Position numbers and translations under genes: made by a program. From a virus, in IMG/VR virus record IMGVR_UViG_3300008050_000022, positions 32,001 to 96,000 of that record: a stretch of 64,000 nt of DNA. One strand, written 5' to 3'. The notes under the pieces are model-generated. The model worked only from the letters and a program-made list of their open reading frames with translations. It was not told the origin of the DNA and did not search any database. Each line of letters begins with the position of its first letter. The first letter of the stretch is position 1. This document shows, in pieces, positions 2,712 to 57,543 of the stretch.

Positions 2712-2740
2712 TGCAAGAACCCGTAGCAGGTCGGCATAAG
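2712..2740 (+). promoter_or_regulatory. Phage promoter motif TGCAAG-N18-ATAAG
   Basis: tgcaagaacccgtagcaggtcggcataag, at the head of the replication operon; the same bipartite motif recurs at several sites. Confidence 0.7.
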
Positions 2741-2770: not shown

Positions 2771-3154
2771 ATGTCCGACATTCCCCGACTACGTAGAGTA
2801 CCAACCTGTTTCGGAGATGCCGAGGCTTACGACCCTGATCACAAGGAGTGTAAAGCCTGCGACGTCAGAGTGCGCTGCAAAGTGCGAGTCCGAAACGCAT
2901 CAAAGTTGAAGAAAGGCAAATCGTCGTCATCCTCGAACTCCGTGGCCGTTAGATCACGGAACAAGGTGTCCAAGCACGATGATGACGATGCGGCTGAGTT
3001 CCGCACAGCAAAGACCCGTACCAAGGGCTGGTGGGGCGCACTGAGCCACAACGCGTTCATCAGGATGTCTTCTACATTCCTGAGAGAAGCCGCGTTCGGA
3101 GTAGAGCAGATCCCTCTCGAACCTTACTCGGACGAGGAGCTAGAAGATGACTGA
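2771..3154 (+). CDS. Hypothetical protein with N-terminal Cys cluster (Zn-binding)
   Basis: AGGAGG RBS and ATG at 2771 (the track start at 2123 is an upstream extension); C-x13-C-x2-C-x5-C. Confidence 0.75.
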   Translation: MSDIPRLRRVPTCFGDAEAYDPDHKECKACDVRVRCKVRVRNASKLKKGKSSSSSNSVAVRSRNKVSKHDDDDAAEFRTAKTRTKGWWGALSHNAFIRMSSTFLREAAFGVEQIPLEPYSDEELEDD

Positions 3155-7118: not shown

Positions 7119-7130
7119 CAGGAGGAGTAG

Positions 7131-26268: not shown

Positions 26269-26270
26269 TC

Positions 26271-31011: not shown

Positions 31012-31290
31012 ATGCTGGTTGAAATGACTGAAGAGGAGTTGTTGGCCGCCCTTGAGGGAGAGGAGTGCATCCTAGACCAGGTGGCTCAGCCCGGACTAGA
31101 CGCTGTGAAGTCGGCAACCTGCCCGGAGTGCGGGGCTCGCCCCCTCCCCATGGTTGATCCGCACAACCCTCTGCATGCATTCTTGCCGACATTCAACTAC
31201 GTCGCCAACTGCCCGGACTGCGGGTGCCAGTTCAGCCCACAGAGTGGAGTGATACGGAAAGTAGGAGGGTTCAGCCCGATCATCACCTGA
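31012..31290 (+). CDS. Small Zn-ribbon protein, antisense to the structural operon
   Basis: CPECG...CPDCG; fills the gap between two minus-strand genes; TAGCCT 6 nt before ATG. Confidence 0.7.
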   Translation: MLVEMTEEELLAALEGEECILDQVAQPGLDAVKSATCPECGARPLPMVDPHNPLHAFLPTFNYVANCPDCGCQFSPQSGVIRKVGGFSPIIT

Positions 31291-34200
31291 ACCTTGCTGC
31301 CGTGGTCTCTTGCGTGAGCTTCAACTGCTCCCCCGGCTCCGCCGCATCGCCCGAGCCAGAAGCTATCACAGTCCCTGGAATGAAGAAGCTGATCCGGTTG
31401 CTGCCGTTGAAGAAGTAAGGCTCGTCCCCTCCCAGGCGGTCCCGAGACCTGTTCCCTACCAGCCGCCGGTTGATGTCGTGCGTAACGGCTACCAGGTAGA
31501 TGTCGTGCGCCCAGTCGTTCGCCCCGTTGTTGTCCAACACCTTCTCGATCTGCGTTGCCAGGCTCAGCGGGTCTACAGGCGAGAGAAGGTTGATCGCTGA
31601 CTGAATCTTCTCCCCCATCACTGACGGCGCGCTTCCACCGGTGTAGCGGATCTCCGCACTGATGTACGACGGCAGGAAGTGCCTTCCTACAGGGTTGGCA
31701 CAGACCGTTCGCTCCTTGGGAGAGATGAGGAATCTGTGGATCTGGTTCACTAGTGGGGAGTGATCGTACTGAATCTGCAGGCTCTGTCCGTGCAGCGGAA
31801 TCGTCTGGGTCAGACGATCTTCTCTTCCTATCGGCAAGAAGCTGGGGGAGAGCATGAGCTTCACTCTCTCGAGGGTGGAGAAGGTGAAGTTGGGATCCTC
31901 GACTTCGTAGTAGTACCCGTCTGCCTGGTACGTGCCGAACACTGCCTCGAACCGCTGCTCGGCTGGGACGTTGTGCACCTCGTCGGTTCCGAGAGCCCGA
32001 ACGGCCACGTCGAAGTAGTACAGGGCCCCTTCCCGCTGCGCCTCCATGCGGGTGGAGGAGATCCTCTGTACACCTGGACGCACAATGCGGAAAGGCTGGG
32101 TAGTCCCTGCCCGAGGTGTAGCTGCCGGGGCAGTGGGGCTCCACACGGAGAAGGTGGTGCCTGCCGTGAGAGAGGAGCCTACGCCCACTACCGTAAACCG
32201 CTTTGCCGAGCCCTCGTAGATCCGCACGGCCCTTGCTGCGACGAGCTCCGTGCCTCCAGCAGTGGTGGAGGGAGGATCGACTAGTGGGGCGGCGGTGATG
32301 GCCCAGATCACTGCATTGTCGTCAACGGTGAAACTGCCTGCAGGGATGTCAAGGTCTACATAGTTCCCGCCTGCGTGTACAGCGGTGATCTCATATGACC
32401 CGTTGGACTGGGGCTCGTCCGACATCATGATCGTCAGGAACTTGCCCACGTCCGTGGACTGGAAGGGGTTCGAGTTGTCCCAGAACCGGGAAGGGAGCGC
32501 TCCTGAGCCAGCGTAGAAGCCTACGCCGCCACTCTTCTCGATCGACAGGGTCGTCTCCGTGAGAGGTCGGTCGAGCTCGAGCTGATAGGCATTGACGATC
32601 TTGGTGACGACGTAGCCGCCCTTGTCTGCTCCACCCTCGATGAAGAAGAGGTCACCTACCTCCACCAGATCCCGCAGGTCTACAGTGGGGATCAGCGTAC
32701 GCAGAGCAAGGGTGACGACATTGCTCCCGAAACGTGTGGTGAAGGCCGGAATGTGGTCGGTGTCGTCAGTAGACGGGGCACTGGGTAGTACAAACACCTC
32801 CTCATGAATCTCGATCTCGTCTCGGTACTGCCGAATGCCCTCGAGGATGGGAGCGTCTCGGTCCGCCCCTATCAAGGTTAGCGCCGTGAAGGTGTTGTCT
32901 CCGTTGATCGTTGCTGTTCCTACTGCCAAATCTCGAGGGTACGCCTGCGGCTGAGTAACTGCTGCCTCGTCTTGGGAAGGGATCACGGGATGCGGGTCGG
33001 CGTCGGGGTCGGCGCCGAACAGCACCTCCAACGCGCCTACCGTGGTGGTGAAGAGGGTGGGTCTAGAGGCTGGTAGGACTACAGGGGTGGGATCTGGAGA
33101 CGTGGTGGGATCGTAGAAGACGACGCACCTACCGCCGCTATCCACCTCTACCGAGGTGGGCTCGGTGAAGTACAGCCGCATCGTGCCAGCACAAGTGGAT
33201 GGACCAACGCAATACGGGACGCTAGACCCGTTCATGAGACCTGCGAAGAACTCCGATGCCGTGAGGTCGAACGTCCCTGAGATGTCCATCCCCAAGGATT
33301 CCAGCGCCTCTAGGATCCACTTGAAGAATTCAACCAACACGTCGAAGGGGTCTGTGGGATCGCCATAGCTGTCGTAGCAGACGTCGAAGTCGGGAGCCTC
33401 GGGCGGAGAGGGAACGAGCGGGAACCCAAACGCGAACAGATCGCAGAAGGGCTTCCACGGGTCCACAGGGAACTGCCCTCGGATACCTACGGCGCACAGC
33501 TTCAGCACGGAGCGGAAGGCGTCCATGCCGTCTTCAAGCGAGCTGGTCAAGCTGATGAACTTCGCCTGATCTGCTGGCGACATGTTGACTAGGTCAGCCC
33601 TCGCAAAGCCCGTCACTGCCGCAGACAGGTCTACCGAATCCTCATCACCCGCCAAGGCGATCAGCAGGTTGATGAGACCGAAGACGTCCTGACCTTCCGC
33701 AGCTCCGGCAAGCATGGCCAAGCCGACGCCGCTTCCCAGAGGAGTGGTGTCGAGGGAAAGCTCGTAGACGCTAGCAACATCATAGCCCCCCGCATTCGGC
33801 CCATCAGTGAGCACGAGAGTGTCTCCCACCAGAGAGGAACACAGAGCCGGACCGGTGCGGGGCAGCATGTTCAGGATGTCTGCCACCAGCTGCTGGGCTT
33901 CAGCGCTGTCTAGCGTGTCCGGCGTGCCCGACTTGATGAGCTTGAACCAGTCCGACAGCGCCCTGAACAACTTGACCAGGTCCACATCGGGCATGGCCAT
34001 GAACAGGTTACTGCAGCAGCCGATCAGCTCCTTGGGAACACAGATCTCGAACTGCACGAAGGGGGTGAGGCCATCGGTGAGGAAGTCCCCTGTGAGCAGG
34101 GTCATGTTCCAGTTGATGACCATCTTGTCGTCTTCGACTTGGAAGATGGGCGGAGTACCTGCGATGAAGGAGGGGAAGAAGGCTGCGATGGTCGTGGTGA

Positions 34201-36529
34201 GCCAGTCAGCTATCTCGTTGACGTAGTCCTGCCCCGTCGATGGAAGGCCCCAGTTGACGGAGATCTCATCCGGATGGACCGTCACACAGAAGATGTACCC
34301 GTCGCAGTCCAAGCACTCCGACGTGTAGTAGTCCTGCCGCCCCAGCATGGACGCCGCGATGACTTCGAAGTCGGGGGCAGCTGGGTTCAAGGCCAGGAAG
34401 GAGCTCAGGCTGGGAGGGCAAGCCGCTCCCATGTTCTCGAACGCTAGCCCGAGGCTCGGAACCGTGAACCCCAGCGTTCCACATGCCGTGGTGTCCGCTC
34501 CCGTGAACGCCTGGTTAGTACGAGCCTCTACAGGCAGGGCGTAGGGCACGTTGATGTCGGAGGGCTGCCCGGTGCTATCCAGAAGCGTTACGCCCTTGGG
34601 AGGGATACGTACTAGGGGAAGCTGGATCCCCGACTGGGAGGTGTAGACCTCGTAAGTCAGGTTCGACGCGCTGTCCGTCAGTGTCCGGTCTACGATCGGG
34701 GTGGCCCCGCCGCCCAGGGTATCGAACCCCCGGATGACGTAGTCTCCGGCGTCGTCCCCGTCCTTGATCTTGATGATGTCGCCTACCGCTACTCCGTACG
34801 AGATCAGATTGACCGTGACGATGAGAACACTCGAACCGATCACCGTACTCAGATCTGCTCCGCCGACTCCTCCGAAGGGGATCTTCAAGATCTTGGGCTC
34901 GATCGGGTCGAACTCGAGGTCGGTTACGACGGAGAAGGGGAGACCGATCTCGTCAGCAACCAGATCGACGTCCAGCACTAGCTGGAGGGGTGTGACATCG
35001 AGGATGCGGTACACGCCTGCGTCAGCACCGCCCTTCAGGACTAGGTACATCCCGATCTGAACACCCAAATCCTCCCAATCCACCGTGATGTCCGAGGACG
35101 TGACGATGTTGGGGAACGCCCCAGACCCTGCAGTTACGAGCGTGGTCATGGACACTAGAGGCGACTCGTCACTGATGTTGGTGACGGACATCGTGCTTCG
35201 CACATCCTTGGTAGGCCGCACGAATACGTCGTGGTGTCCACCGATATGAACTACCTCATCTAGTATTTCGAGCTCCCCTGAGCCGGTATTGGGGGCCTGG
35301 ATCCCTCCCGGTATGTCAGAGATCGTCAGCTTTCCTGGGCCCGTAATGATCGCGTTCACGGCTGGTAGGAACCCGGGCAACGAGCCCAAGATGGCAGAGG
35401 TCGGAGTCGGAGACTTGTCCAGCCGGAACAGCAAGATGTTGGGGAGGTTGGCGATCACGTCCTGACTGTCGAAGACGATCGAGTCGATTTCGAACTTCTC
35501 TTTACTGGACGCCGGCGGCAGGCCGTACAGGAGCTTCCCGTAGTTGAGGACCACCTCCATACCTACAGCGACCTTGTCCGTCCCCAGCAGGCCCCGGTCT
35601 TCCCAACCTGCGAAGAAGAGGACGAAGGTACCAAATACGAACGCCTTGCCAGCTGCCCGTACTGACCCCTGCCCGCCCCCGGTCATGCGGTCTCGCTGCA
35701 TCTCGGGGTCGTTGTACCCAACCACCTGCACGCTGTTGATCGTAGGGAAGGATCCCGCTAGCCGGGACTCGATGCCCCTGGCGTTGGTAGTAGATCGCTC
35801 AGTCAGGGACTTCCTACCTCGAGCCACTAGCTGCGCGTTGGTCTCCCTGGACCGCCCAGTCGAGGCTCTGGCCGGGTTAGTGACTCTCACCACGTTGGGG
35901 ATGTCTTGCACCCGCACCAGTTGACCAGGAGTGATCTCGTACTGCGGTCCGGTCTGTTCTGCCCTCAGATGGAAGTCGGCGTAGTACAGGTCGCCGAACC
36001 GCTGGGCGGCCATCGTTGCCGCTGTAACAGCCTGAGGCTCGGGCGGGAAGAAGTTCAGACCGTTCGTTGTGGAGAACTGCGTGACAGGGGCCACGGAAAC
36101 GAACGTCGGGTTCGAGAAGAAGACTCGCCCGGTCACAGAAGCATACTGCCCCGTCCGCCTCTCAACGAACCAGTTCGCCATGAGGTCGTCTGCGTCGTGC
36201 TCGGTCAGTAGCTCCGACCGTCGGACAGACTGTCGCTGCTTGGAGCGGAGGATCTGCTCCTTGAGGGCCCCAAGAGTCAGAGCCAGCGGCTTCGTCACCA
36301 TGTCTGCGAAGGGACTGCCCTCGTCCACGTTGAGGCTGGGGTACTCCTGGCGGATGCGATCCTCTACGAAGGTACGCGTAGGAGTAGTGAGGGGGTCCGG
36401 CCCGAGAGCGTCCAGGATGGGGGAGATCACCTGGGAGTAGAAAGGCGACCCCTCAGCCACGTCCATAGTGGCGTCGAAGCGGAGAGCGTTGAGCTGTAGA
36501 AGCTCCTTGATGTCTTGTCGAAGAGCCAT
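31283..36529 (-). CDS. Baseplate J-like (gp6-type) wedge protein with large insertions, 1748 aa
   Basis: D.LMANWFVERR.G..A, A...G.QY.I, VTNP.....G..RETN..L..R, VVGYND.EM.RD; adjacent to the gp25-like gene. Confidence 0.8.
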   Translation of the reverse strand: MALRQDIKELLQLNALRFDATMDVAEGSPFYSQVISPILDALGPDPLTTPTRTFVEDRIRQEYPSLNVDEGSPFADMVTKPLALTLGALKEQILRSKQRQSVRRSELLTEHDADDLMANWFVERRTGQYASVTGRVFFSNPTFVSVAPVTQFSTTNGLNFFPPEPQAVTAATMAAQRFGDLYYADFHLRAEQTGPQYEITPGQLVRVQDIPNVVRVTNPARASTGRSRETNAQLVARGRKSLTERSTTNARGIESRLAGSFPTINSVQVVGYNDPEMQRDRMTGGGQGSVRAAGKAFVFGTFVLFFAGWEDRGLLGTDKVAVGMEVVLNYGKLLYGLPPASSKEKFEIDSIVFDSQDVIANLPNILLFRLDKSPTPTSAILGSLPGFLPAVNAIITGPGKLTISDIPGGIQAPNTGSGELEILDEVVHIGGHHDVFVRPTKDVRSTMSVTNISDESPLVSMTTLVTAGSGAFPNIVTSSDITVDWEDLGVQIGMYLVLKGGADAGVYRILDVTPLQLVLDVDLVADEIGLPFSVVTDLEFDPIEPKILKIPFGGVGGADLSTVIGSSVLIVTVNLISYGVAVGDIIKIKDGDDAGDYVIRGFDTLGGGATPIVDRTLTDSASNLTYEVYTSQSGIQLPLVRIPPKGVTLLDSTGQPSDINVPYALPVEARTNQAFTGADTTACGTLGFTVPSLGLAFENMGAACPPSLSSFLALNPAAPDFEVIAASMLGRQDYYTSECLDCDGYIFCVTVHPDEISVNWGLPSTGQDYVNEIADWLTTTIAAFFPSFIAGTPPIFQVEDDKMVINWNMTLLTGDFLTDGLTPFVQFEICVPKELIGCCSNLFMAMPDVDLVKLFRALSDWFKLIKSGTPDTLDSAEAQQLVADILNMLPRTGPALCSSLVGDTLVLTDGPNAGGYDVASVYELSLDTTPLGSGVGLAMLAGAAEGQDVFGLINLLIALAGDEDSVDLSAAVTGFARADLVNMSPADQAKFISLTSSLEDGMDAFRSVLKLCAVGIRGQFPVDPWKPFCDLFAFGFPLVPSPPEAPDFDVCYDSYGDPTDPFDVLVEFFKWILEALESLGMDISGTFDLTASEFFAGLMNGSSVPYCVGPSTCAGTMRLYFTEPTSVEVDSGGRCVVFYDPTTSPDPTPVVLPASRPTLFTTTVGALEVLFGADPDADPHPVIPSQDEAAVTQPQAYPRDLAVGTATINGDNTFTALTLIGADRDAPILEGIRQYRDEIEIHEEVFVLPSAPSTDDTDHIPAFTTRFGSNVVTLALRTLIPTVDLRDLVEVGDLFFIEGGADKGGYVVTKIVNAYQLELDRPLTETTLSIEKSGGVGFYAGSGALPSRFWDNSNPFQSTDVGKFLTIMMSDEPQSNGSYEITAVHAGGNYVDLDIPAGSFTVDDNAVIWAITAAPLVDPPSTTAGGTELVAARAVRIYEGSAKRFTVVGVGSSLTAGTTFSVWSPTAPAATPRAGTTQPFRIVRPGVQRISSTRMEAQREGALYYFDVAVRALGTDEVHNVPAEQRFEAVFGTYQADGYYYEVEDPNFTFSTLERVKLMLSPSFLPIGREDRLTQTIPLHGQSLQIQYDHSPLVNQIHRFLISPKERTVCANPVGRHFLPSYISAEIRYTGGSAPSVMGEKIQSAINLLSPVDPLSLATQIEKVLDNNGANDWAHDIYLVAVTHDINRRLVGNRSRDRLGGDEPYFFNGSNRISFFIPGTVIASGSGDAAEPGEQLKLTQETTAARFR

Positions 36530-37173
36530 TACGCCACCAGGTTCACTAGGGCAGCATCTCCTGCCATTGAGATCAGCTCGACCCGTCCCTGCAAGGTTCC
36601 GGACTGCGGTTCGAAGCTTACAGATACCACCCGGGCAGCGGCCAGCCTTTCATCCGCTGGGAGGGTGACGCGATTAGCCTGCAGTTCCAGGATCTGGCTC
36701 TTTGTTCGAGCGACGGCTTGAACGAACGAGGTCTTGAGGTCAGGGCGAGTTGGGGCCCCTGCTACCTGGCCCACCAGGGCCAGCAAGTTCCCTCCGATGT
36801 CGGGGCGGTACACGTCCCGGCCAGGCGTGGTCAACAGCACCTTCGTGAAGAGCTGCGCTAGAGACATGAGCCCCGACAGGAGTCCTGTCTCTAGCTTCGG
36901 CTTGATGATGCTTCGCTCCGTGAGGGTAAACGTGCTGCTAAGTACTTGGATCGTACGAAGGCGATCATCCCGAAGCTGTTCGGGACGATCAACTAGCAGC
37001 ACGGAAGAAGAGAAGATCGCAAAGGTGGTCACTACGCCGTTGAGCAGCACTTCGGTGACTTTTCGGAAGTCTACTCCGGTGACTTTGTAGAGGACGGGGT
37101 ACGTACTAGCGATCACCTCCACCCTGCTGACAGGGACTATGTCCTGGACCGAGATGATTTGCAGATCGCTCAT
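36529..37173 (-). CDS. gp25/GpW-like baseplate wedge protein
   Basis: GL..LAQ.F.KVLLTTPG.D..RP..GG.L ... ERL motif. Confidence 0.7.
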   Translation of the reverse strand: MSDLQIISVQDIVPVSRVEVIASTYPVLYKVTGVDFRKVTEVLLNGVVTTFAIFSSSVLLVDRPEQLRDDRLRTIQVLSSTFTLTERSIIKPKLETGLLSGLMSLAQLFTKVLLTTPGRDVYRPDIGGNLLALVGQVAGAPTRPDLKTSFVQAVARTKSQILELQANRVTLPADERLAAARVVSVSFEPQSGTLQGRVELISMAGDAALVNLVA

Positions 37174-42729: not shown

Positions 42730-43023
42730 CTACTCCGCCCCAGCCAGGCGGAGAAGCGATCCCTCCACACGAGTCATCGTCTCGCCGATCTTCTTCAGCT
42801 CAGCACGCAGCTCTACGAGGCTGATGTCTCGCTCGTGCTTGACTGCCTCGAGGACTACTACCCGGGCCTCTAGCTTGACCGCTTTGGTCTGCTCGGCGGC
42901 GAAGTCTCGCTGTAGATCGTGGAACGCCAAATAGCCGCTCAAGACGATGGGCAACAATCCGATGATGTACCAGCCGATCTTGCCGGCCCAGCTGGGAATC
43001 TTGATCGTAGTCGGCTCGGACAT
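42730..43023 (-). CDS. Small membrane-anchored coiled-coil protein
   Basis: GGAGG RBS; N-terminal TM (IGWYIIGLLPIVLSGYLAF) followed by a heptad region. Confidence 0.7.
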   Translation of the reverse strand: MSEPTTIKIPSWAGKIGWYIIGLLPIVLSGYLAFHDLQRDFAAEQTKAVKLEARVVVLEAVKHERDISLVELRAELKKIGETMTRVEGSLLRLAGAE

Positions 43024-43024
43024 C

Positions 43025-43414
43025 TCAGCCTCCCTTGAGCAGCACGGCTGCAGCTGCCGTAAGGATTGCTCCCACAGTACCGCCCGCAACTAGTCTGGAA
43101 AACCACTTTTGCCAATCGGCCTGCTGCTCTAGGCGATCTAGGCGGGTGGGTAGGTCCTGTTTTTCGGCGGCCTCTGCTGCCTTCTTGAGGGCAGCGACAG
43201 CTCCTACCAGGCCGACTTCCCCGTTGCCCAGCAGAATCTTCCTCACGGACGCTGCGTCAGTCGCTCCCTGCTTCGAAAGTGCTTTGACTTCTGCGAGCTC
43301 TCGGGGTAGCGCACGAATGTCCTTCAGTTCTGGGGCGGACAAGGAATGTCCACTGTCTTGCTGCTCCCTGACCGCCTCCAGAAGGGAGATAATTCGTTCC
43401 TCGGACTCGGTCAT
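43025..43414 (-). CDS. Coiled-coil protein with C-terminal TM helix (holin/XhlA-like architecture)
   Basis: LLGNGEVGLV...RLDRLE...W..LVAGGTVGAILTAAAAVLL. Confidence 0.65.
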   Translation of the reverse strand: MTESEERIISLLEAVREQQDSGHSLSAPELKDIRALPRELAEVKALSKQGATDAASVRKILLGNGEVGLVGAVAALKKAAEAAEKQDLPTRLDRLEQQADWQKWFSRLVAGGTVGAILTAAAAVLLKGG

Positions 43415-43461
43415 CCTGTCCCCGTGAGTAGTCCCCGGATTGCCTACGTGCGTGCGACCAA

Positions 43462-43490
43462 ATGATGGACGGCTGAGCCGTCTAGGGCAA
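43462..43490 (-). promoter_or_regulatory. sigma70-like promoter candidate TTGCCC-N17-CATCAT
   Basis: Intergenic, upstream of the membrane-protein cassette. Confidence 0.4.
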
Positions 43491-43498
43491 TCACGAAG

Positions 43499-43927
43499 TC
43501 AGGGGGTGAAGCGAGGGGTGTCTACTGGGACTATTCGGGCAACCGTGAACTGGTCCTGAGCTGCCCCAACCAGGTCCAGGAGATCCGCAGAATGTGCGTT
43601 GGGGACGGTGATTCTTCTGGTGATGCCAGTGCCCGTCAGAGTTACCTCAAAGGTGCTGCCCCGCAGAAGGAAGATTTCCGCCTCACCTCGAGCATCTGTG
43701 ACTGTGGCTACTCGCCCGCCAGACAAGAAGGCCAGGCCCCCAACTCCGAGGTGCTGAAGGTTCCCCAGGGTACTGTCGAAGGCGATTGTCCTGCCCACCG
43801 CAGGCTGACCATCTCCGCCCAGCCACCGAACGAACACACGGCATAGCTCCTCCCTAGGGGCCCGAGCAGAGCTGCGAGCGCCTAGGACCAGGCCGTTGAG
43901 TGCGTAGCCGGTGTAGCTCGGCATCAA
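43499..43927 (-). CDS. Virion protein, paralogous to the middle domain of 40631-41527
   Basis: CRVF..GQP..TDARG....L.RG..F.V.L.G....I.VP.....L.DL shared with the other gene. Confidence 0.65.
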   Translation of the reverse strand: MMPSYTGYALNGLVLGARSSARAPREELCRVFVRWLGGDGQPAVGRTIAFDSTLGNLQHLGVGGLAFLSGGRVATVTDARGEAEIFLLRGSTFEVTLTGTGITRRITVPNAHSADLLDLVGAAQDQFTVARIVPVDTPRFTP

Positions 43928-44964
43928 GTCACCTCGAGCGCTACGAAGTCCGAACTGTCAGCGAAGACTCTCAGAACCGTCGTCCCGAGCGTGATGTCGT
44001 CCAGAGCGATGAGAGTCCCGGTTGGCACACGTCGAAACCGCTGCAAGGTGCCGACTAGCTGCCTTACCCCCGCCGTGCCGTTGTAGACGAAGATGTCGGA
44101 GACGGGCACCGAGCCGTAGTCATCACTCGGGAGGACCGACGTACCGAGCAGGTCGATCAGGGAAGTCCACAGCAGGACGTGGTTGAGTGCTCCCAAATAC
44201 GCATCCGTGCTGTGCAGGGCATGCGGGACTGCATCCTCCAGCACCCCACCAGAGTCTCCCCAGAGGATCACGGGCTGAGGATCGACTGCCACTAGCGCCA
44301 GCGTGTCGTATGTCTCTGCCAGAGCGACGACCAGGTTGATCTCGCGATCAGGGATGTTGACCGAGGCGACCTGCACCCTCTCCACGTTCGCCGGCCCGTT
44401 GGCGTTCTGGTTCACTACCCAGAGGTACTGACCTGCCTCCAGGTTCGTGAAGTCCGTTCCAGCTCGGAAGTACAGCCGGGTAGAGGCCGTGGTGTTCGTC
44501 CCCGTCTTCGGGCCGTCTAGGAGACCGAAGAAGTCTCGCTGGGCAGGGATGGCTGGAGGTAGGGCTCCGAAGTAGCCCTTGTTGTAGTCCGCCCCTACCA
44601 GACAGCAGATCGCGACGCCGTCAGCGTCAGCGTTGAGCCACCCCGTCATCGCCCCGTTGGTTAGCTGGATGCACGATCCGCCGACCAGGTCACCAACCTC
44701 GTTGTACCCGGTGCCTGCGGACCAGTACGAGTACGCACGGAAGTCGATCTTCTCTCCGGCCGAGTCGTGCGTAGCCCTAAGCCACAGCCCCTTACGCTGA
44801 TCAGAGCCAGCGCTGTAGTACACGCGATCCTGCGCTCCCAGGGCCGCACTGACCTCTTGGGCGAGGGTCCAGCCCGCTGCTAGAAGAGCTTGGCGAAGTC
44901 CGTTCGCGGAGTCGATCAGATCATCGATGTCCGCAAAGGCCTGATTGGTAACGATCGCGGGCAT
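43924..44964 (-). CDS. Putative virion structural / fibre-associated protein
   Basis: L.AAGWT N-terminus, beta-rich, operon context. Confidence 0.6.
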   Translation of the reverse strand: MPAIVTNQAFADIDDLIDSANGLRQALLAAGWTLAQEVSAALGAQDRVYYSAGSDQRKGLWLRATHDSAGEKIDFRAYSYWSAGTGYNEVGDLVGGSCIQLTNGAMTGWLNADADGVAICCLVGADYNKGYFGALPPAIPAQRDFFGLLDGPKTGTNTTASTRLYFRAGTDFTNLEAGQYLWVVNQNANGPANVERVQVASVNIPDREINLVVALAETYDTLALVAVDPQPVILWGDSGGVLEDAVPHALHSTDAYLGALNHVLLWTSLIDLLGTSVLPSDDYGSVPVSDIFVYNGTAGVRQLVGTLQRFRRVPTGTLIALDDITLGTTVLRVFADSSDFVALEVT

Positions 44965-44967
44965 GCA

Positions 44968-45282
44968 TCACGCCGATCTAACCACCCGCACCAGCACCTT
45001 GCGCTCGGCGTCGTACGAGTAGCTACGGACAGCCGTTTCCGGATCTGCCAGGTTCATGTCGTCCAGAGCCGTCCGCATCAGCTCGAGCTGAGCACGGGCG
45101 CTCTCTGCTACTTCTCTCTGGCAGTCTCGCAGATGGCCTCGGGCCAGGTCCACGCGTAGTGCAGCGTTCTCGATTCGGAGCTGCGTGAGCTCGTCCAGGG
45201 GGATGATGGGAGGTAGCTCCGTCGTCCGGGCTACTACAGCCTCTTCTACCTGGGCATCTACGCTCTTCTTCGCTGCGGTCAT
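44968..45282 (-). CDS. Hypothetical coiled-coil protein
   Basis: AGGAG RBS; operon context. Confidence 0.65.
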   Translation of the reverse strand: MTAAKKSVDAQVEEAVVARTTELPPIIPLDELTQLRIENAALRVDLARGHLRDCQREVAESARAQLELMRTALDDMNLADPETAVRSYSYDAERKVLVRVVRSA

Positions 45283-45284
45283 CG

Positions 45285-45482
45285 TTACTCCTGTAGGAAG
45301 GTCTCTAGCTTGTCCACCAAGAAGATCTCGGCGGTTTGGGCATTCAGCCGGCGCAGTGTACTCGACCCCGACCTGCCTTCGAGCACGGCCTTCAAGAACT
45401 TGACCTCGTTGTTCACGCGGTCACGCTCTTTATCGATCCACTCTCGAGCGGACGATTCTAGGTCGTCTAGGCTAGATGCCAC
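45285..45482 (-). CDS. Small hypothetical protein
   Basis: Overlaps the sigma stop; coding-like. Confidence 0.6.
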   Translation of the reverse strand: MASSLDDLESSAREWIDKERDRVNNEVKFLKAVLEGRSGSSTLRRLNAQTAEIFLVDKLETFLQE

Positions 45483-46263
45483 CGCCGTACTCCCGGAACT
45501 TCTTCTCTACTTTGTTCTTTATACGGGAGACAGTGGGGGCCGACACGCCAATCCTCTTAGCAATCTCACCGGTTCCCAGCGTGGGCTTACCGTTGAGACC
45601 GAGCGAGTACTCGAGGACAGTGTACTCACGGGGAGCCAGCTCGTACTTGATCAGCCGAATGATCTCCAAGTCCTTGGGAGGGATCATGGAGGAAGGATTT
45701 GAGAGCTCTACTGCTCCCTCGTAGCCTGACGTCAGGAGATCCCTCCGCATCTCCAACTGCATGCGGTTCACCTCTGCAGGCGCCCACTGCAGCTTGTCCG
45801 AGATCTCCATGGAAGTGGGCTCTCGACCGAAGTCCTCAGACAGCTGACTCAGCGCCCCCTTGTACTCCGTGATCTTGTTGATCCGCTTCTCGGGAATCGC
45901 TCCGACGTTCTGGTACTTCTTGATGAAGCGGCCGGACTTTCGAAGAAGTCCGTAGACGTGAGTGCTGAGCGCAGCAGGCTTGCCGGACTTCTTACCGACG
46001 TAGTTCGGATCGTAGGTACGGAAGGCGTTGAGCAGCTGCTGGTTCACCTCCGCCTCGATCACGGGGGTAGGCAAGGGCACCCGTCCAGAGAACTTCCTAA
46101 CCTGACTCTGTGCCAGGTTCTGGAAGGAGGCTACGAGGGGTTCCAGCTTGACCGGATCCTCTCCCGATGCCTTCCACTGGTTCCACATCTCCATCTCTGC
46201 CTGCCGACGGGCAGACAAGCCGGGCCTCTTGGCGGCCAGCTTGTGGAGGATGTCCTCGTCCAT
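45472..46263 (-). CDS. RNA polymerase sigma factor, sigma70 family (FliA/SigF-like, regions 2-3-4)
   Basis: Region 2 LLNAFRTYDP...LSTH...IPE; region 3 FGREPTSMEI; region 4 LAPREY.VL...GLNG...EIAKRIGVSAPTVSRI. Confidence 0.88.
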   Translation of the reverse strand: MDEDILHKLAAKRPGLSARRQAEMEMWNQWKASGEDPVKLEPLVASFQNLAQSQVRKFSGRVPLPTPVIEAEVNQQLLNAFRTYDPNYVGKKSGKPAALSTHVYGLLRKSGRFIKKYQNVGAIPEKRINKITEYKGALSQLSEDFGREPTSMEISDKLQWAPAEVNRMQLEMRRDLLTSGYEGAVELSNPSSMIPPKDLEIIRLIKYELAPREYTVLEYSLGLNGKPTLGTGEIAKRIGVSAPTVSRIKNKVEKKFREYGGGI

Positions 46264-46793
46264 TACCTGAAGCCGGGGTTAGGGAGCGGTACCGTAGTGG
46301 CTTGAGCGTTAGAGGGAGGGGTAGGTACTCCAGATCTACCAGCGTTGAACCTGAACGCCGACTGATCCGCCTTCAAGGAGCTTTTAGCCGCCGTCAGGGT
46401 GCTAGGAGGAGAGAAGGCGGGGCGCTTGATCTTCGCCAGACCGTTCCTACGGAGATCGACTCCAATGTCTGCCGCAGTCTTCTCAGCCGACTCGCGGTAG
46501 TTCTTCAGGACGCCCTTGTACCCCCGGCGGGTGGACAGCTCTTCCAGGTACTTGTCCCCTGCAGCGACAGCCCCTCCGATAGCCGCCCCTGCAAGGTGGT
46601 GCTTACGGCCAGGGTTCTTGGCCCCGAAGCTGGCCAGCATGCCTCCCGGGATGGCCCCGATCACTCCTCGATGAGCGTACGGGCGCGCAGAGTCGATCTT
46701 TCGCAAGACCCTCTTCTTCCGCTCACGCGACTTCGCGTTCTCTGCCAACTTCAGCAGCTCGAGTCCGAATGCCTGGTAGACGAGGTGGTTCAT
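46263..46793 (-). CDS. Basic Gly-zipper protein with AFxxELxKLA leader and internal EKTA (putative internal virion protein)
   Basis: MNHLVYQAFGLELLKLA...GAAIGGAVAAG...EKTAA. Confidence 0.7.
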   Translation of the reverse strand: MNHLVYQAFGLELLKLAENAKSRERKKRVLRKIDSARPYAHRGVIGAIPGGMLASFGAKNPGRKHHLAGAAIGGAVAAGDKYLEELSTRRGYKGVLKNYRESAEKTAADIGVDLRRNGLAKIKRPAFSPPSTLTAAKSSLKADQSAFRFNAGRSGVPTPPSNAQATTVPLPNPGFR

Positions 46794-47017
46794 CCGCCGT
46801 ATCGCTGCATCATCCTCTGGGCCTTGAGCTGCCGCCTCTGCTGCTTCCGCACCCTGTGGCCCACGGAGATGTCCTTAGCTGCCTGCTGCGCTCCTACGGT
46901 GCCTACAGCGCCGGCTAGGAGGCCTTGCTGGACCTTGCTGAAGCGAGCCTCCTTGGTCCACGGGGCGGACTTGCTCACCGCGATCTTGATCATCTCTTCA
47001 CCGAAAGCACTGAACAT
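46790..47017 (-). CDS. Small basic protein with AFxEExxKIA leader and TKEA (putative internal virion protein)
   Basis: GGAGG RBS; MFSAFGEEMIKIA...TKEA...GLLAGAVGTVGA...KQQRRQLK. Confidence 0.7.
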   Translation of the reverse strand: MFSAFGEEMIKIAVSKSAPWTKEARFSKVQQGLLAGAVGTVGAQQAAKDISVGHRVRKQQRRQLKAQRMMQRYGG

Positions 47018-47021
47018 CTGT

Positions 47022-50000
47022 CTATCCCTCCAAGCCTCGACCAAGATCGCCGCCTCGGCCTAACAATTCTCTGCGGTACGCCAGAACCTTAGCGCGTCTG
47101 GCTTGCCGAGGGTCCATATCCGGATTCAGCTGAATCGGCGTTCCCATGGAGACCTTGGGCATTCTCTTGTTCGGGTCGTTGATCAACCCTTTCAGTCCGG
47201 TTAGCTCTGCTACTGCCCGACTATGGAACCCTTCTTCCCCTTTGGTCAACGCGCCATCCTTGTCGAACTCGACATGACGGCCCAGCACCTCATCCATCCT
47301 AGCAACTGGGCGGAAGGTGTAGTTCTGAATGAACTTGGTCAGGTCCAGGTGATCTCCTTGAGAGGACTTCAAGTGCCCGTAAACGGTCGCTAGTGCGTCA
47401 ACTGCCTGAGCAATAGACACACTCTGCTCCACCTTGATCTTGACTGCCTCAGACTTCTCCGCCGCCGCCGTACCGTCTGTGGATGGGACAGTGACGTCCA
47501 CATCCACGTAGACATGGCCCGACCTCAAAGAGCCTAGACGATCCGCTTCGCTCAGCTGGAACACCTGATCGTCTACTACCGACCCGGTACCGAATAGCGG
47601 CTCGTACACCTTCTTGCCGATCTTGTCGTTGTAGTACACGTCGGAGAACCAGGGAGGGAACAACGCCATCTCTACAGGCGTTTGGATCTTCGTAGTAGCG
47701 AAGGCCTCCTTGTCCTCTCTGCTGAACGTGACTCTTTCCTCAATAATGATGTCGGAGAAGAACACTGCACCGTGATCAGCTGGGTGCTCTTCAGGCACTC
47801 CGGCCGGCACGGCGCCCGCACCCCATGATTCTATATAGGGGCCCACACCCCCAACCGTAACGGAAGTGATCGTCCCTCCATTGATCCCGACCGTATCGAG
47901 TAACCGTATCTCTGCGTCCCCCTGCAGATCCTCTAGAGAGGGGAGTTCTACTGACATTGAGGCGCTGACGGATCTTCCGTACAGGAACTTCGCAGCTTCT
48001 GGAGAGTCCGTGATGTTTGACGTGACGTGATCGAAGTGGGTGATCATGGTCACGCCAGCCAGCGCCCTTTCCCGCGCCCCGATGAAGAGGTTGAGGAACT
48101 CATCATCAGATCCGTCAGCCGTTCTATGTGAGCGGGCCTGCGTGAACGAGACTGACGAGGTCCCTCCGGACTGACTAATGGAGTGGGACAGGGAGCTGAC
48201 CAGTCCGAGCATGGCAGTAGGCAGGTACGTGATGCCCCCCTCTAGCTCAAAGCCGGTGACGGACTCCTTAATCTTGCTGAAGACCTGCTGCACGGTCATG
48301 TCCCCTGGAGGAGTGAACCCCCTCTGGATCACTACGCCGGGGAACCCCAAAGCCAGGTACGGGTTGAAGTAGCAGCTCACCTCCATCGATCTAGACGAGA
48401 AGCGGTGCCGAAAGAAGTTGAAGTCTGCGACATGCTTCCTCAGAGCGTCCGCGTCCGAGGAGAGTCCTTGCGCTGCTCGAGCCTCCGTCAACGTCTTGTT
48501 GGCGAAGAAGTTGACCTGGCCCATGCGCTCGAAGCGAGGAACGATTCCTGTGAACCGCTCGTGCTGCATCGTGAAGTTCTTGGTGAGATGGCCGCCTGCC
48601 TCAAACTCCTTCCGGAACTCCTCGACCCGGGGGGAGTAGTTGAAGGACGCTAGTAGGGCGTTCTCCTCCGATCCGAGGATCTCCAGGTTTGTTCGCAGCT
48701 GGATGCGAGAGACCTCTCGCATGTACCCACGGGCGTAGTTCACGCTGAGCTGCTGCTCTGGGAAGATCACGTTGCATCGTGGAGGGGCCACGAACCAGAC
48801 GTCCGGCCGGATGATCTGCGTGAGCAGGCGCGCTGCTCGCCTCTTCTCCGCGAAGCTCGAGGCCTCCCTGGTAGGGATGTCAGCCAGTCCGCTGCCCCTG
48901 CCCCGCACCAGCTTCGGCACCACTAGAGCCGTGTACTCATCCGGTGTAGTGAAGGGAGGAGAATCGCGCTTACCCTGCTGCTGTGCGATGACGTCGTCAG
49001 GGAATTTCGTATTCCCTGGTTCGTTGACGTAAGCCGGGTAAAAGACCTTCATCAGGAGACTGCGAAGGCTCCACCCTTCGGCGGGTGGGCGAGCGCCCCT
49101 AGTGAAGTACTGGTACATGAGCTCGAAGTGCTCCTCTGGGGTGAGCTCCAGGATCAGAGTACCGACCTCCCGCCTAGCCCGCTGGGTCTTACCGAGCTGG
49201 ATATCGAGATCATCCGCACTGTGGCCCCCCTCTATCGTCCCCTTTTCCCACTTCTTCCTCCAGACGACGTTCCTCTTCTGGAAGTGGCTCACCTTCGCTG
49301 CCAGCAAGGGGAGGTCGTACACATTCGCTGGAGTGAACTGAATCAGTCCTGTAGCGAAGGTCCCTGGAGGCGGCTCTGTTACGTCCTCCCAGTTCTTTGT
49401 GTTCTGGCTGGCGATGTTCCACTCAGACTCTTTTTGGATGATGGCTGCCAGGTCGTAAGGATCTGCGCCGATCTTGCGGGCCAAGGCCACGCACCTCTGC
49501 GCGAGATCCAGGTTGCACCCACCTATCCGGCCATGATGATCAGCGATCTCCCGCGCGGCCAACTCGTCTGACACCGCCGAGGTGGCGACTATCTCATCCG
49601 ACAGACCCGAAACCCGCTCCCCTAGAATGTATCGCGGCGTCGGATTGGGGCAGATGTTGTGGTACGTGTGCGAGTTGAAGAGCCCTACGACATCTCGGAA
49701 GCTCACGAGATCGCCCATGCCTCCTAGTGAGTTCTCCAACCACTGGGTAAACGCCTTCGCCTTGAAGAGCTCTCCGGCAGTGACGTCGTCCTCCACTGCC
49801 CCGACCTGGTGAGTGTTCTTGACTCGGAGTTCGGCGATTGTGTTGTACAGATTCGCCCCAGCCCGAATACCGGGAACCCCTCCCACTGCTTCAAGTGTGT
49901 GAATTACTCCTCCTAGAAGTCCTGTGGCGTTCTGCAGATCAGGAGTCAAGGGAGTCTTGGTCAGCATCCCCGCCAGCACTGTGGAGGGGTTGTTCACCAC

Positions 50001-50456
50001 GTCATCGAAGAGGTTGTCACTAGCGCCCAAGTACGCGGCGGGACGCTCTGCGAGCTTGTCGCTAGACACACTCATCATGTACTGGAAGGTGGTGTCCCAG
50101 TAGGAGCTGGTGTCCAAGCACTGGAACGTCACCGACCTGCTGCCAGGCGACTTGCTCATGCTTACGGAAACGATCTCCCCGCAGAACATGAGTCGATACT
50201 GTCCCCGATCCTTGGCCTCTCCCCACTCATCTTCAGGGATCGTCCACCTAGCCGGACCTGCTCCCTCGTCTAGGTAAAACAGATGAACCAACGTCCTTGG
50301 CTTGAGCTCCAGAGCGCGATCAGTCGGAACTACCTGGACGTTGGCGGATGCTCCGCTCCCTATGGAGGCGTTGACGGAAGCGCCTACTACAGGAACTTCG
50401 ATTCCTTCGAGGAACAGCCGCAGGTGGATCTTACGTCCTTGGCCGTGCGCCGCCAT
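47022..50456 (-). CDS. Baseplate hub-like protein with inserted lysozyme/lytic-transglycosylase-like domain, 1144 aa
   Basis: LRLFLEGIEVPV, PP.CNVIFP, FNPY...GFPG hub-like motifs; insert AAIIQKES.WN...ATGLIQF.P. Confidence 0.7.
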   Translation of the reverse strand: MAAHGQGRKIHLRLFLEGIEVPVVGASVNASIGSGASANVQVVPTDRALELKPRTLVHLFYLDEGAGPARWTIPEDEWGEAKDRGQYRLMFCGEIVSVSMSKSPGSRSVTFQCLDTSSYWDTTFQYMMSVSSDKLAERPAAYLGASDNLFDDVVNNPSTVLAGMLTKTPLTPDLQNATGLLGGVIHTLEAVGGVPGIRAGANLYNTIAELRVKNTHQVGAVEDDVTAGELFKAKAFTQWLENSLGGMGDLVSFRDVVGLFNSHTYHNICPNPTPRYILGERVSGLSDEIVATSAVSDELAAREIADHHGRIGGCNLDLAQRCVALARKIGADPYDLAAIIQKESEWNIASQNTKNWEDVTEPPPGTFATGLIQFTPANVYDLPLLAAKVSHFQKRNVVWRKKWEKGTIEGGHSADDLDIQLGKTQRARREVGTLILELTPEEHFELMYQYFTRGARPPAEGWSLRSLLMKVFYPAYVNEPGNTKFPDDVIAQQQGKRDSPPFTTPDEYTALVVPKLVRGRGSGLADIPTREASSFAEKRRAARLLTQIIRPDVWFVAPPRCNVIFPEQQLSVNYARGYMREVSRIQLRTNLEILGSEENALLASFNYSPRVEEFRKEFEAGGHLTKNFTMQHERFTGIVPRFERMGQVNFFANKTLTEARAAQGLSSDADALRKHVADFNFFRHRFSSRSMEVSCYFNPYLALGFPGVVIQRGFTPPGDMTVQQVFSKIKESVTGFELEGGITYLPTAMLGLVSSLSHSISQSGGTSSVSFTQARSHRTADGSDDEFLNLFIGARERALAGVTMITHFDHVTSNITDSPEAAKFLYGRSVSASMSVELPSLEDLQGDAEIRLLDTVGINGGTITSVTVGGVGPYIESWGAGAVPAGVPEEHPADHGAVFFSDIIIEERVTFSREDKEAFATTKIQTPVEMALFPPWFSDVYYNDKIGKKVYEPLFGTGSVVDDQVFQLSEADRLGSLRSGHVYVDVDVTVPSTDGTAAAEKSEAVKIKVEQSVSIAQAVDALATVYGHLKSSQGDHLDLTKFIQNYTFRPVARMDEVLGRHVEFDKDGALTKGEEGFHSRAVAELTGLKGLINDPNKRMPKVSMGTPIQLNPDMDPRQARRAKVLAYRRELLGRGGDLGRGLEG

Positions 50457-51727
50457 CAGAGAGCCGGATTAACCGCTGACAGGCCGCCCATGACATTGTC
50501 CTCCCTAGGAGCGCCTGTCGTCGTGGGTAGCATCATATCTCGAACTACGAAGGCCCCGTGGGTAGGCGGATCATCTACGGACCCGGCGGACATCTCACCG
50601 TTGGCTGCAAGCATCTGCCCACCCACCACAGTCATGGCCCCCTGCAGATTGCCGGACAGGTTCTTCTTCAGAACCCCAAAGCTCTTGTCGTGTACCTCGG
50701 TCGGGTTCTCGGGGGTGCTGCCTTGCTGCCTCAGCTCAGCCCACATTTGATCTTGCCGAGCCGTCGCCTCTGCCTCGGCATCGAACTCCCCTCCTCCTGC
50801 CCCGTACACGTACTCATCCACGTTGTCGTAGATGTTGCTCCTGATGGAGTCCCTGTCTCTTCCCTCGTAGACTGTCCCCGAAACTGGGGGCACGGTGTAG
50901 TAGGTGCCGTCGGCGTCCTGGTAGTACTCCTTCTCGGGATCTGTCCACAGCTGCAGGGCATCCACCTTGTAGGGTTCGTTGAGCGCGTCAGCAATCTCCT
51001 GAGTCCGCCTACTCCTGATGTCGGCCACCTTGTCCTCGGCAGCGCGTAGAGCGGAGTGTCCAGGGAACTCCGCAGCTCCAATGTCGCTGCTGTCGTGGTA
51101 CCCCGTCACCCACATCGAGAAGTTGAGGGACACCAGGTTGGGGTTCGCTTCTGCCTGCTGCCCGATCGCGGAGTTCAGCATGTACCCCTCAACGACGATG
51201 TCGTCGTAGGAGATGTACAGCCGAGCATTCCGCTCCACCAGCTTCGTGCCCCGAAAGATGTTCTCGTAGTTCTCCCACCACTCCGATCGCCAGTTGAAGT
51301 CAGCGGTGTTCACCAGCACTCCACTGAACTGCACTACTCGAGGTCGCTCCCCAAAGAAGAAGCCGTAGGCCTGGCCGAAGGTCTCCAACAACTGCAGCTT
51401 CTCGTCTCTCGATTCGCTGACGGACTGGAGAATGTAGTTGGCCGACATGTCGGCGCTCTTTGTCTCGTTCGGCGGGGCACTGGAGTTGATGAGTCCTACA
51501 GGAGCTCCCCCTGCATCCAGCACCCGCATGGTCGAGTACGTGTTCGGCGTCACCTGGATGCCTCGAGTAGGTCTACGGACGTAGAGCCCTCCGTACGAGC
51601 TCTCCCCAACGGTCACCTTCCTCCGATACGCGGTTGAGCGAGTCGTACTGTGCTCCCGACCCACAGTAGCGGCTACCTCCTCCGGCGAAGCGTGGAATAC
51701 TTCTTCCTCTAAGGTGATGATCGTCAC
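50456..51727 (-). CDS. Tail-tube-fold baseplate/tail initiator-like protein
   Basis: NYILQSVSE.R.EK.QL.ETFG..FFGERPR...SG.L; lies between the tape measure and hub genes. Confidence 0.55.
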   Translation of the reverse strand: MTIITLEEEVFHASPEEVAATVGREHSTTRSTAYRRKVTVGESSYGGLYVRRPTRGIQVTPNTYSTMRVLDAGGAPVGLINSSAPPNETKSADMSANYILQSVSESRDEKLQLLETFGQAYGFFFGERPRVVQFSGVLVNTADFNWRSEWWENYENIFRGTKLVERNARLYISYDDIVVEGYMLNSAIGQQAEANPNLVSLNFSMWVTGYHDSSDIGAAEFPGHSALRAAEDKVADIRSRRTQEIADALNEPYKVDALQLWTDPEKEYYQDADGTYYTVPPVSGTVYEGRDRDSIRSNIYDNVDEYVYGAGGGEFDAEAEATARQDQMWAELRQQGSTPENPTEVHDKSFGVLKKNLSGNLQGAMTVVGGQMLAANGEMSAGSVDDPPTHGAFVVRDMMLPTTTGAPREDNVMGGLSAVNPAL

Positions 51728-51957
51728 ATTCTCACCCTTCCGCGTGCCAGCAGGTAGTCCGTGACGTCTCTGCCGTACTCTGGCGTTCCGCCAGAACCTG
51801 TCTTGACCTTCGCGGCGTAAGCCTTGATCGCGTTCACCATGAAGTCGTCAACGATCGCCTCACTCAGGATGCGGATCCGCTTGATCCGCACACCTCGACC
51901 TACCGTGAACTCCTCGACCCTCTCTTCTCGGGATCGGATCTCGTCGAACTGACTCAT
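51724..51957 (-). CDS. Small hypothetical protein
   Basis: ATGA coupling on both sides. Confidence 0.6.
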   Translation of the reverse strand: MSQFDEIRSREERVEEFTVGRGVRIKRIRILSEAIVDDFMVNAIKAYAAKVKTGSGGTPEYGRDVTDYLLARGRVRM

Positions 51958-55370: not shown

Positions 55371-55383
55371 CTACGGCTCCTGG

Positions 55384-55412
55384 TGAAAGAATCGGGGAGG
55401 CGCTGGGATAAG
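55384..55412 (+). promoter_or_regulatory. Phage promoter motif TGAAAG-N18-ATAAG
   Basis: tgaaagaatcggggaggcgctgggataag, intergenic, divergent from the tape measure gene. Confidence 0.65.
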
Positions 55413-55413
55413 A

Positions 55414-57515: not shown

Positions 57516-57543
57516 TGAAAGACTGCACCATCTAGGGGATAAG
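57516..57543 (+). promoter_or_regulatory. Phage promoter motif TGAAAG-N17-ATAAG
   Basis: tgaaagactgcaccatctaggggataag, upstream of the ligase-rIIA-rIIB operon. Confidence 0.7.

Follow-up and report, generated by a model that had tools for sequence, protein, structure and literature searches.

Several bacteriophages begin transcription in a new host with an RNA polymerase of their own. In phage N4 and in jumbo phages of the phiKZ/AR9 type, this polymerase is expressed late, packaged and injected, and it has its own class of early promoters, such that early transcription proceeds independently of the host enzyme (PMC7598289). The enzymes differ in kind: that of N4 is a single-subunit, T7-like polymerase, and those of phiKZ and AR9 are highly diverged, come in four to five pieces and have no sigma-70-family factor; Iyer et al. 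(2021; PMC7824862) report that the phiKZ-type (group 1) jumbo phages lack sigma factors altogether. Phage members or relatives of the sigma-70 family, such as T4 gp55 and SPO1 gp28 and gp33/34, likewise set a phage-specific class of promoters; the T4 gp55 and SPO1 factors are produced in the early or middle stage of infection, act on the host core enzyme and are not components of the virion. To our knowledge, the known phage sigma factors all act on the host enzyme and are not packaged, and none of the virion-delivered polymerases of N4, phiKZ/AR9 or crAss-like phages has a true sigma-70-family factor. Here we examine the phage of IMG/VR record IMGVR_UViG_3300008050_000022, a single contig of 105,937 bp, of which positions 32,001 to 96,000 make up the 64,000-nt stretch that we call the window (positions are those of the window unless assigned to the contig, i.e., the whole record). 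This phage has a sigma-70-family gene within a minus-strand virion operon and encodes a recognizable bacterial-type beta-beta' RNA polymerase, and we consider it an even proposition that it packs both proteins and injects them to start transcription.

The nearest described systems are those of Salmonella phage Arash and Vibrio phages D69, D181 and D148, which are the only four cultured phages in the phage database matched by the sigma factor and the capsid protein; the matches that cover most of the polymerase are to these four as well. They have a homologous sigma factor (about 31–34% identity), polymerase and capsid protein; in Arash (OQ632216), gp10 is the sigma factor, gp206 the beta and gp216 the beta' subunit. 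The Arash polymerase thus comes from two genes, one for beta and one for beta', and that of this phage is one chain of 2067 amino acids; the sigma factors of Arash and D69, whose proteins are 24–34% identical to those of this phage, lack the N-terminal leader described below. The order of genes around the sigma gene is identical in Arash, D69 and this phage: a large structural protein, a small protein, proteins of about 470 and about 225 amino acids, a cell-wall hydrolase, a small protein, the sigma factor, another small protein and then structural genes.

An orthologous sigma factor has been recovered with phage particles. In the liquid chromatography–mass spectrometry analysis of purified Arash particles, the polymerase beta subunit Gp206 was the most-detected protein (3516 spectra), the capsid protein and the beta' subunit Gp216 gave 1333 and 1210 spectra, respectively, and the sigma factor Gp10 was represented by 467 spectra and 24 unique peptides that covered 100% of its length (PMC10585845). 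The sigma spectra were 2–4 times those of metabolic enzymes in the same preparation, and the Arash polymerase genes adjoin the portal and head genes. In one paragraph, the authors proposed a role in early transcription for the packaged polymerase and sigma factor (PMC10585845); the idea is hence not wholly new, and our search of the literature on packaged sigma factors found no study besides theirs.

The product of the gene in the window is a divergent sigma-70-family protein of 263 amino acids. Its open reading frame starts with MDEDILHKLA, as the initial annotation had read it, and a Pfam scan of this frame matches Sigma70_r3 (PF04539) at residues 130–171 with 27.1 bits against a cut-off of 25.3 (a six-frame search gave 24.9 bits, slightly under that cut-off), while phrog_351, 'RNA polymerase sigma factor', matches residues 43–261 at 3.6e-13. 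Region 4 has a weak Pfam match (PF04545, 16.6 bits against a cut-off of 24.1) and is supported by alignment of the orthologue profile through region 4 of RpoS, SigA and FliA; a profile of 17 orthologues matches RpoS, SigA, FliA and SigF from holoenzyme structures in the PDB over residues 77–260, at 1e-6 to 1e-3. No Pfam match was found for region 2; on that side of the protein, the alignments to TIGR02980 and phrog_351 begin at residues 42–43, and those from Foldseek cover almost the full chain. The AlphaFold model has a pLDDT of 81.9, and the 50 top Foldseek matches to it are all sigma factors, aligned over 250–290 columns with a probability of 1.0.

The earlier description of this protein as FliA/SigF-like survives only as a loose one. 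It appears to have the sigma2-sigma3-sigma4 layout without region 1.1 that characterizes FliA and SigB/F/G, and these are its best matches among curated families, but its scores lie far under their cut-offs and its own family is phage-specific. Membership in the FliA/WhiG (sigma-28) subfamily was rejected at 26.2 bits against a TIGR02479 cut-off of 189.6, and membership in the SigB/SigF/SigG subfamily at 30.9 bits against a TIGR02980 cut-off of 234.35. Where we call the protein 'group-3-like', the term is a descriptive label, since it falls in no curated subfamily.

The RNA polymerase gene lies 4.9 kb before the window, outside the stretch on which the initial annotation was made. In a single open reading frame, Rpb1 domains 1–5 come after Rpb2 domains 3 and 6 (Pfam E-values of 1.6e-57 for Rpb2_6, 1.9e-28 for Rpb1_2 and 9e-24 for Rpb1_5), and it also matches several 'RNA polymerase beta subunit' PHROGs. 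Like the sigma gene, it is on the minus strand, where it adjoins head genes, with the terminase and capsid genes to one side and other large proteins to the other; its side of the contig holds the large terminase, a protease-domain protein of 631 amino acids (contig 5329-7224) and the capsid protein. An alpha domain (PF01000) was not found in the contig or in four complete relatives (G006, G007, G008 and G011; G001–G024 denote viral genomes and labels of the form L0nn denote IMG/VR loci), and the phage enzyme may either do without alpha, with beta-beta' and sigma sufficing, or borrow the alpha subunit of the host.

The sigma factor and this type of polymerase occur together. Among 21 sigma-bearing viral genomes, 20 have one polymerase beta domain, including all 18 of those that are at least 90% complete, and these domains mostly reside in open frames of about 2030–2400 amino acids; no genome of this group yielded more than one polymerase, which sets it against the phiKZ/AR9 type. 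Because the phage encodes a beta-beta' enzyme and the two genes go together in every one of the 18 near-complete relatives, the phage's own polymerase, and not the host core enzyme, is probably the partner of the sigma factor. A sigma gene is present in the tail module of all 17 complete genomes examined, and the GC-rich clade to which this phage is closest yielded no second full-length sigma and one partial match (in G023), so this protein is probably the polymerase's general initiation factor. In an AT-rich clade (G009, G010, G013, G015, G016 and G019), there is a second divergent sigma away from the tail module (E-values of 1e-8 to 1e-20; e.g., G013:C1:75293-76012), and the tail-module sigma has no K-x-A leader, in contrast to the leader-bearing sigma of the GC-rich clade. 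The differing numbers of sigma genes in the two clades may reflect a two-sigma versus a one-sigma scheme of transcription.

The position of the sigma gene places it among virion genes. Its ATG overlaps the stop codon of the upstream gene as TAATG, and the next gene downstream overlaps its 3' end by 11 nt, so that it is translationally coupled to its neighbours, two small basic proteins upstream among them (Table 1). It sits between hub and wedge genes, and because the baseplate J and W genes belong to the same minus-strand block, we assign it to the tail/baseplate module. A search of IMG/VR with a 17-sequence sigma alignment returned 59 loci, most of which have hydrolase homologues upstream and baseplate J/W homologues 2.5–3.5 kb downstream, all on the strand of the sigma gene; the placement is thus kept across a deep phage lineage, which makes the sigma gene part of the virion gene module. 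Since, in this clade, the one polymerase found and the one full-length sigma found are both encoded in virion operons, and since both orthologues appear in the Arash particle proteome, packaging is favored, and we hold with modest confidence that the sigma factor is virion-associated.

Among the neighbouring genes, the 1144-aa virion protein is by position the counterpart of Arash gp8, and its homologues lie upstream of sigma in most loci. Arash gp8 is listed as 'cell wall hydrolase, structural protein' with 777 spectra (PMC10585845). The small acidic proteins that follow the sigma gene have homologues in the same place in L006, L007, L013, L015 and L024. The open reading frame of the 75-aa basic protein stays open up to a TTG at 47044. 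Matches to sigma-70-type promoters and to terminators in window positions 43000–56000 were not above shuffled expectation.

Table 1. Positions of the sigma gene, its neighbours and the other features discussed (window positions unless the contig is named)
Feature	Position	Strand	Evidence or remarks
Sigma-70-family factor, 263 aa	45472..46263	-	Pfam, PHROG, orthologue profile, AlphaFold/Foldseek
Sigma leader MDEDILHKLA, codons 1-10, ending in K-x-A	46234..46263	-	Orthologue conservation; AlphaFold model
Small basic protein, 176 aa, pI 10.8	46263..46793	-	Leader ..YQAFGLELLKLA; Gly/Ala-rich hydrophobic stretch; stop overlaps sigma start
Small basic protein, 75 aa, pI 11.4	46790..47017	-	ATG at 47017; leader MFSAFGEEMIKIA
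Virion protein, 1144 aa	47022..50456	-	Weak lytic-transglycosylase (SLT) match, E 0.0013, under cut-off
Two small acidic proteins, 65 aa (pI 4.9) and 104 aa (pI 5.2)	44968..45482	-	Directly downstream of sigma
Baseplate wedge genes, J-like (1748 aa) and W-like (214 aa)	31283..37173	-	phrog_6, 1.7e-16; phrog_43, 5e-6
Fused beta-beta' RNA polymerase, 2067 aa	contig 20912-27115 (L002:3912-10115)	-	Pfam and PHROG matches
Promoter-like motif 1, TGCAAG-N17-CATAAG	2712..2740	+	About 30 nt before first gene of replication block
Gene that follows motif 1, 127 aa, rich in Cys	2771..3154	+	phrog_13400; heads helicase/UDG/DnaB/primase/PolA/RecA block
Promoter-like motif 2, TGAAAG-N17-GATAAG	55384..55412	+	In 43-nt gap between two minus-strand virion genes
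Promoter-like motif 3, TGAAAG-N16-GATAAG	57516..57543	+	Ahead of ligase / rIIA-like block

The sigma factor of this phage carries a short N-terminal leader that ends in K-x-A and that is modelled by AlphaFold as a separate, low-confidence helix (residues 3–10) joined by a linker to the body of the protein. The leader is conserved in orthologues, a check that the initial annotation had put forward, though not in all of them. Of 68 distinct sigma orthologues, 41 have an N-terminal extension and 27 begin at a conserved ELxLW helix; K-x-[AG] occurs in 32 of the 41 extended proteins against 16.2 expected, and none of 2000 composition-preserving shuffles reached 32, although the orthologues are related and the test therefore overstates their independence. 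Examples include LHKVAA, LEKLAA, FAKVAM, EFLKLQEKTA, DFLNYSSKEA and EFLGHEKQAA. Leaders of the form F-x-x-E-x-x-K-x-A, which had been pointed out on the two small basic proteins, recur on the equivalently placed small proteins of L006, L009 and L013, and L024 shows a K-I-S variant there. In other phages, the protein encoded ahead of sigma retains either F-x-x-E-x-x-K-x-A or W-L-A-K-E-A.

Similar leaders are present on head proteins. In this phage, K-x-A is present near the N-terminus of the capsid protein and the protease-domain protein; it is kept in the orthologues of both (EG[KR]EK[ILV]A..GG for the capsid protein), as it is in those of four further proteins of the head module. Arash head proteins also have it, e.g., the major capsid protein gp226 (GLVKEAGAA) and gp222 (LTKQAAAA). 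A longer pattern, P-[AVL]-x-[DE]-[FYW]-[LI] with K-x-[AGS] no more than 12 residues further on, gave 17 distinct matches in 1.6 million open-frame residues; the sigma factor and a small head-module protein, two families unrelated to each other, account for 11 of these, with the match at the very start of the protein. The leader is most simply read as a head-protease or capsid-targeting signal common to head proteins that was added to sigma by one clade. Actual cleavage of the sigma factor after KLA is conceivable by analogy, though we would place it slightly below an even chance. A Gibbs sampler aimed at the leader converged instead on the conserved sigma helix.

The leaders recall phage T4, whose internal proteins IPI-III and Alt bear a capsid-targeting sequence and whose prohead protease is gp21: small basic proteins and an enzyme have leaders of about 10–17 residues, with a short end motif that the capsid protein and other head proteins share. 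In this phage, by contrast, the genes for the sigma factor and the small basic proteins are in the tail module, and the motif is K-x-A. K-x-A is nearer to the (V/L/I)-x-A of herpesvirus assemblin than to the (L/I)-x-E of T4.

Several other sequences bear on these leaders. The family-A DNA polymerase (window 10890-12917, plus strand) begins MLRPVAEFIDSEKKAKDV, which fits the long leader pattern of sigma and the head proteins; this may be due to chance, the K-x-[AG] part not being kept in the orthologues compared. The 939-aa protein at the head of the other minus-strand operon (window 1-2659; contig 31840-34659) starts ..HDFGPGLVKEAG, which resembles a distant sigma leader (..EFGPNMVKVAD, L060) and the start of the Arash capsid protein (..QGLVKEAGAA). 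The phage RNA polymerase has one K-x-A-[AGS] site where about 3.7 would be expected; this site, at residue 1465 (..GLREKTAATAATTAG..), is about 40 residues beyond the end (residue ~1427) of the one-piece alignment to Arash gp206, and it might be a protease cut that parts the two halves of the polymerase. Each leader-bearing small protein (window 46263-47017; contig 7232-7759) also has a Gly/Ala-rich hydrophobic stretch (e.g., GVIGAIPGGMLASFGA, GLLAGAVGTVGAQQAA, AGAGSVGALALGSAMATVL), and these could be membrane-inserting segments of the sort that would fit ejection or channel proteins.

Candidate promoters for the sigma factor come from a bipartite, sigma-28-like motif, reported earlier to precede plus-strand replication and accessory genes but not virion genes, and its distribution is as described. 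Three sites, all intergenic and on the plus strand, fit TG[AC]AAG-N16-17-[CG]ATAAG, each of them precedes one of the window's three plus-strand gene blocks, and no minus-strand copy stands in front of the virion operons in the 106-kb contig. With the search pattern TG[AC]A[AC][GA]-N16-18-[CG]ATAAG, the contig has 3 copies against 0.16–0.3 in shuffled sequences, but the pattern was derived from the same sites and the statistics are circular. The block after motif 1 encodes an SNF2 helicase, UDG, a DnaB-like helicase, primase, PolA, a RecA-like protein, a Cas4-like exonuclease and RusA, and that after motif 3 encodes ligase and a rIIA-like ATPase; motif 2 is oriented towards small genes of no assigned function at window 55755-57294. 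A transcript from motif 2 would cross a 92-aa gene (55414-55692) in antisense, over about 340 nt, before the first plus-strand gene (55755).

Conservation of the motif was compared for motif 1, in genomes beyond the closest sigma relatives (P0002, 87%, and P0003, 84% identity). G001 lends the motif independent support: it is collinear with this phage at about 50–60% protein identity, and its orthologous gap keeps GTCAAYGCAAGAACCC..TCGGCATAAG (GTCAAYGCAAGAACCC-N-TCGGCATAAGGACAG) while the flanks have diverged. Related AAGAAC-N13-GG[GC]ATAAG sites are present in G004, G008, G021 and G024, and a looser AGGAA-N13-GGGATAAG site in G022 stands immediately before the homologue of the SNF2 helicase. 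Searches for related loci with the ligase and the helicase as queries returned 0 and 1 loci, respectively.

The -10-like GG[GC]ATAAG and its spacing fit group-3 promoters, as judged by the sigma-28 and sigma-B consensus sequences, and the GAAA-N15-..GATAA geometry of the sites resembles the TAAA-N15-GCCGATAA of FliA (sigma-28) promoters. Such likeness fits a group-3-like sigma factor and does not of itself identify the reader of the sites; judging from sequence and arrangement, we regard the chances that the three motifs are promoters of this sigma as evenly balanced. As to possible ends of transcripts, a perfect G+C-rich palindrome (GAATGAGGGGAGAGGT.ACCTCTCCCCTCATTC) at contig 13131-13163 (L001:13131-13163), between convergent genes, looks like a two-way terminator, and comparable GGGGAGGGGC..GCCCCTCCCC hairpins follow plus-strand genes near window 10850 and 62170.

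Taken as a mechanism, the sigma factor would be the promoter-specificity subunit of the phage's single-chain beta-beta' polymerase. Both genes would be expressed along with the virion genes and their products built into the particle, from which they would enter the next host with the DNA; the pair would then fire the TG[AC]AAG-N16-17-[CG]ATAAG promoters before the replication and accessory genes, with no need of the host polymerase. The K-x-A leader of the sigma factor and the two small basic proteins would serve, by analogy, as a recognition and cleavage site of the prohead protease, as a capsid-targeting peptide, or as both. For this phage, we infer packaging, cleavage, ejection and the reading of these promoters by sigma. 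The genes for the polymerase and sigma are in virion operons, as in the strategy of N4 and phiKZ, and presence in a particle preparation is shown for the relative Arash only. The system is likely a sigma-dependent variant of that strategy, from which it differs by the true sigma-70-family partner. The inversion of the familiar order of host sigma early and phage sigma late, which the initial annotation had suggested, is accordingly the less fitting description. More tentatively, and with the balance of probability somewhat against us, we extend the reading to a widespread lineage of phages of about 175–215 kb, which would package an alpha-less beta-beta' polymerase with sigma, in one clade by means of a cleavable leader, and fire phage-specific promoters.

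Several observations weigh against packaging and injection of the two proteins. The Arash preparation held 116 of the 272 proteins of that phage, including ribonucleotide reductases and kinases at about 110–170 spectra each, and its authors concede the possibility that abundant late proteins were carried over (PMC10585845). The complete coverage of the Arash sigma factor argues against its processing there. Moreover, the sigma gene is among tail/baseplate genes and not head genes, and the leader is absent from 27 orthologues, including those of Arash, D69 and the AT-rich clade, from which it follows that it is not required for the function of the family; nor is it needed for association with virions, the Arash and Vibrio-phage sigma factors being leaderless. 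The polymerase itself has no K-x-A leader at its N-terminus. Plain K-x-A is a motif of low information, which shows no genome-wide enrichment at N-termini (20 proteins against 17 expected) and whose conservation in 11 of 34 minus-strand families and 4 of 22 plus-strand families does not differ significantly (p = 0.2), so that the argument from the leader is based on conservation and on the longer leader shared across families. As for the promoters, there are only three copies of the motif, the virion operons yielded no promoter class of their own, and the relaxed pattern is not enriched over 17 complete relatives (20 matches against 14 in a reversed control, several of the matches perhaps falling inside genes), which indicates that the exact motif is not a feature of the whole group, despite its retention in G001. 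Finally, the contig represents about 56% of a phage genome by CheckV, and further sigma or transcription factors may be situated in the remainder.

Some of these points would be expected if the sigma factor served the phage polymerase without being a virion component, for instance by sustaining or boosting late transcription while being co-expressed with the late genes. Its detection in Arash would then be carry-over from the lysate, as the many metabolic enzymes in that preparation allow, and the leader would be a clade-specific extension with a part in regulation, stability or partner binding, in keeping with the many leaderless orthologues, the weakness of K-x-A and the location in the tail instead of the head module. 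However, the sole polymerase and, in this clade, the sole full-length sigma that were found are encoded in virion operons, which without packaging would leave the phage with a start-up problem or require an unseen route through the host. In addition, beta was the most-detected protein of Arash and sigma exceeded the metabolic enzymes, the position between hub and wedge genes has been kept over very deep divergence, and the leader matches those of the head module. We therefore consider a purely intracellular role unlikely, though it retains an appreciable chance.

Two other explanations concern the partner of the sigma factor and the reader of the motifs. The initial annotation had a packaged or late-made sigma bind the host core RNA polymerase and redirect it to phage early promoters, as most known phage sigma factors (T4 gp55, SPO1 gp28 and gp34) use the host core, and the apparent sigma2-sigma3-sigma4 architecture of this protein is ordinary enough to permit it. 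That proposal was made with the reservation that a phage polymerase encoded outside the window would count against it, and such an enzyme is present in the form of the complete beta-beta' polymerase, which co-occurs with sigma throughout the near-complete relatives; likewise, the only cultured phages that sigma matches are also those with the widest-covering matches to the polymerase. A role on the host core thus appears very improbable. Alternatively, the three motifs could be read by a host sigma factor (sigma-28-like, group-3 or a variant of the housekeeping type) or be operators or other sites, and have no relation to the sigma gene. Their likeness to TAAA-N15-GCCGATAA is real, they are few, and they lack enrichment in the relatives. 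Yet all three are correctly oriented at the starts of plus-strand blocks, motif 1 has been kept in G001 amid diverged flanks, and similar sites occur in relatives whose G+C contents range from about 0.55 to 0.67 and whose hosts probably differ, which together make this explanation improbable.

Bacterial-type beta and beta' subunits that stand apart from the cellular enzymes are also known from the mReC lineage, likewise made up of uncultured tailed phages (Weinheimer and Aylward 2020; PMC7481178). The capsid proteins of that lineage match Pfam PF07068, whereas the capsid protein of this phage matches no Pfam family, and the mReC report does not mention sigma factors, virions or promoters (PMC7481178).

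If the reading is correct, a packaged beta-beta' polymerase with its sigma factor would constitute a third arrangement, besides the virion polymerases and the phage sigma factors that act on the host enzyme, and infection would begin without the host polymerase by way of the canonical sigma mechanism. It would represent a minimal, two-polypeptide holoenzyme of bacterial type, without alpha, that would be useful for defining what sigma requires of the core. The K-x-A leader offers a testable cleavage or targeting code for putting foreign proteins into capsids, and the existence of a cultured relative, Arash, with a published particle proteome makes the main claims directly testable. For the little-studied group that includes these Salmonella and Vibrio phages, such a system would explain how infection could start while evading the host's control of transcription or its polymerase-targeting defences.

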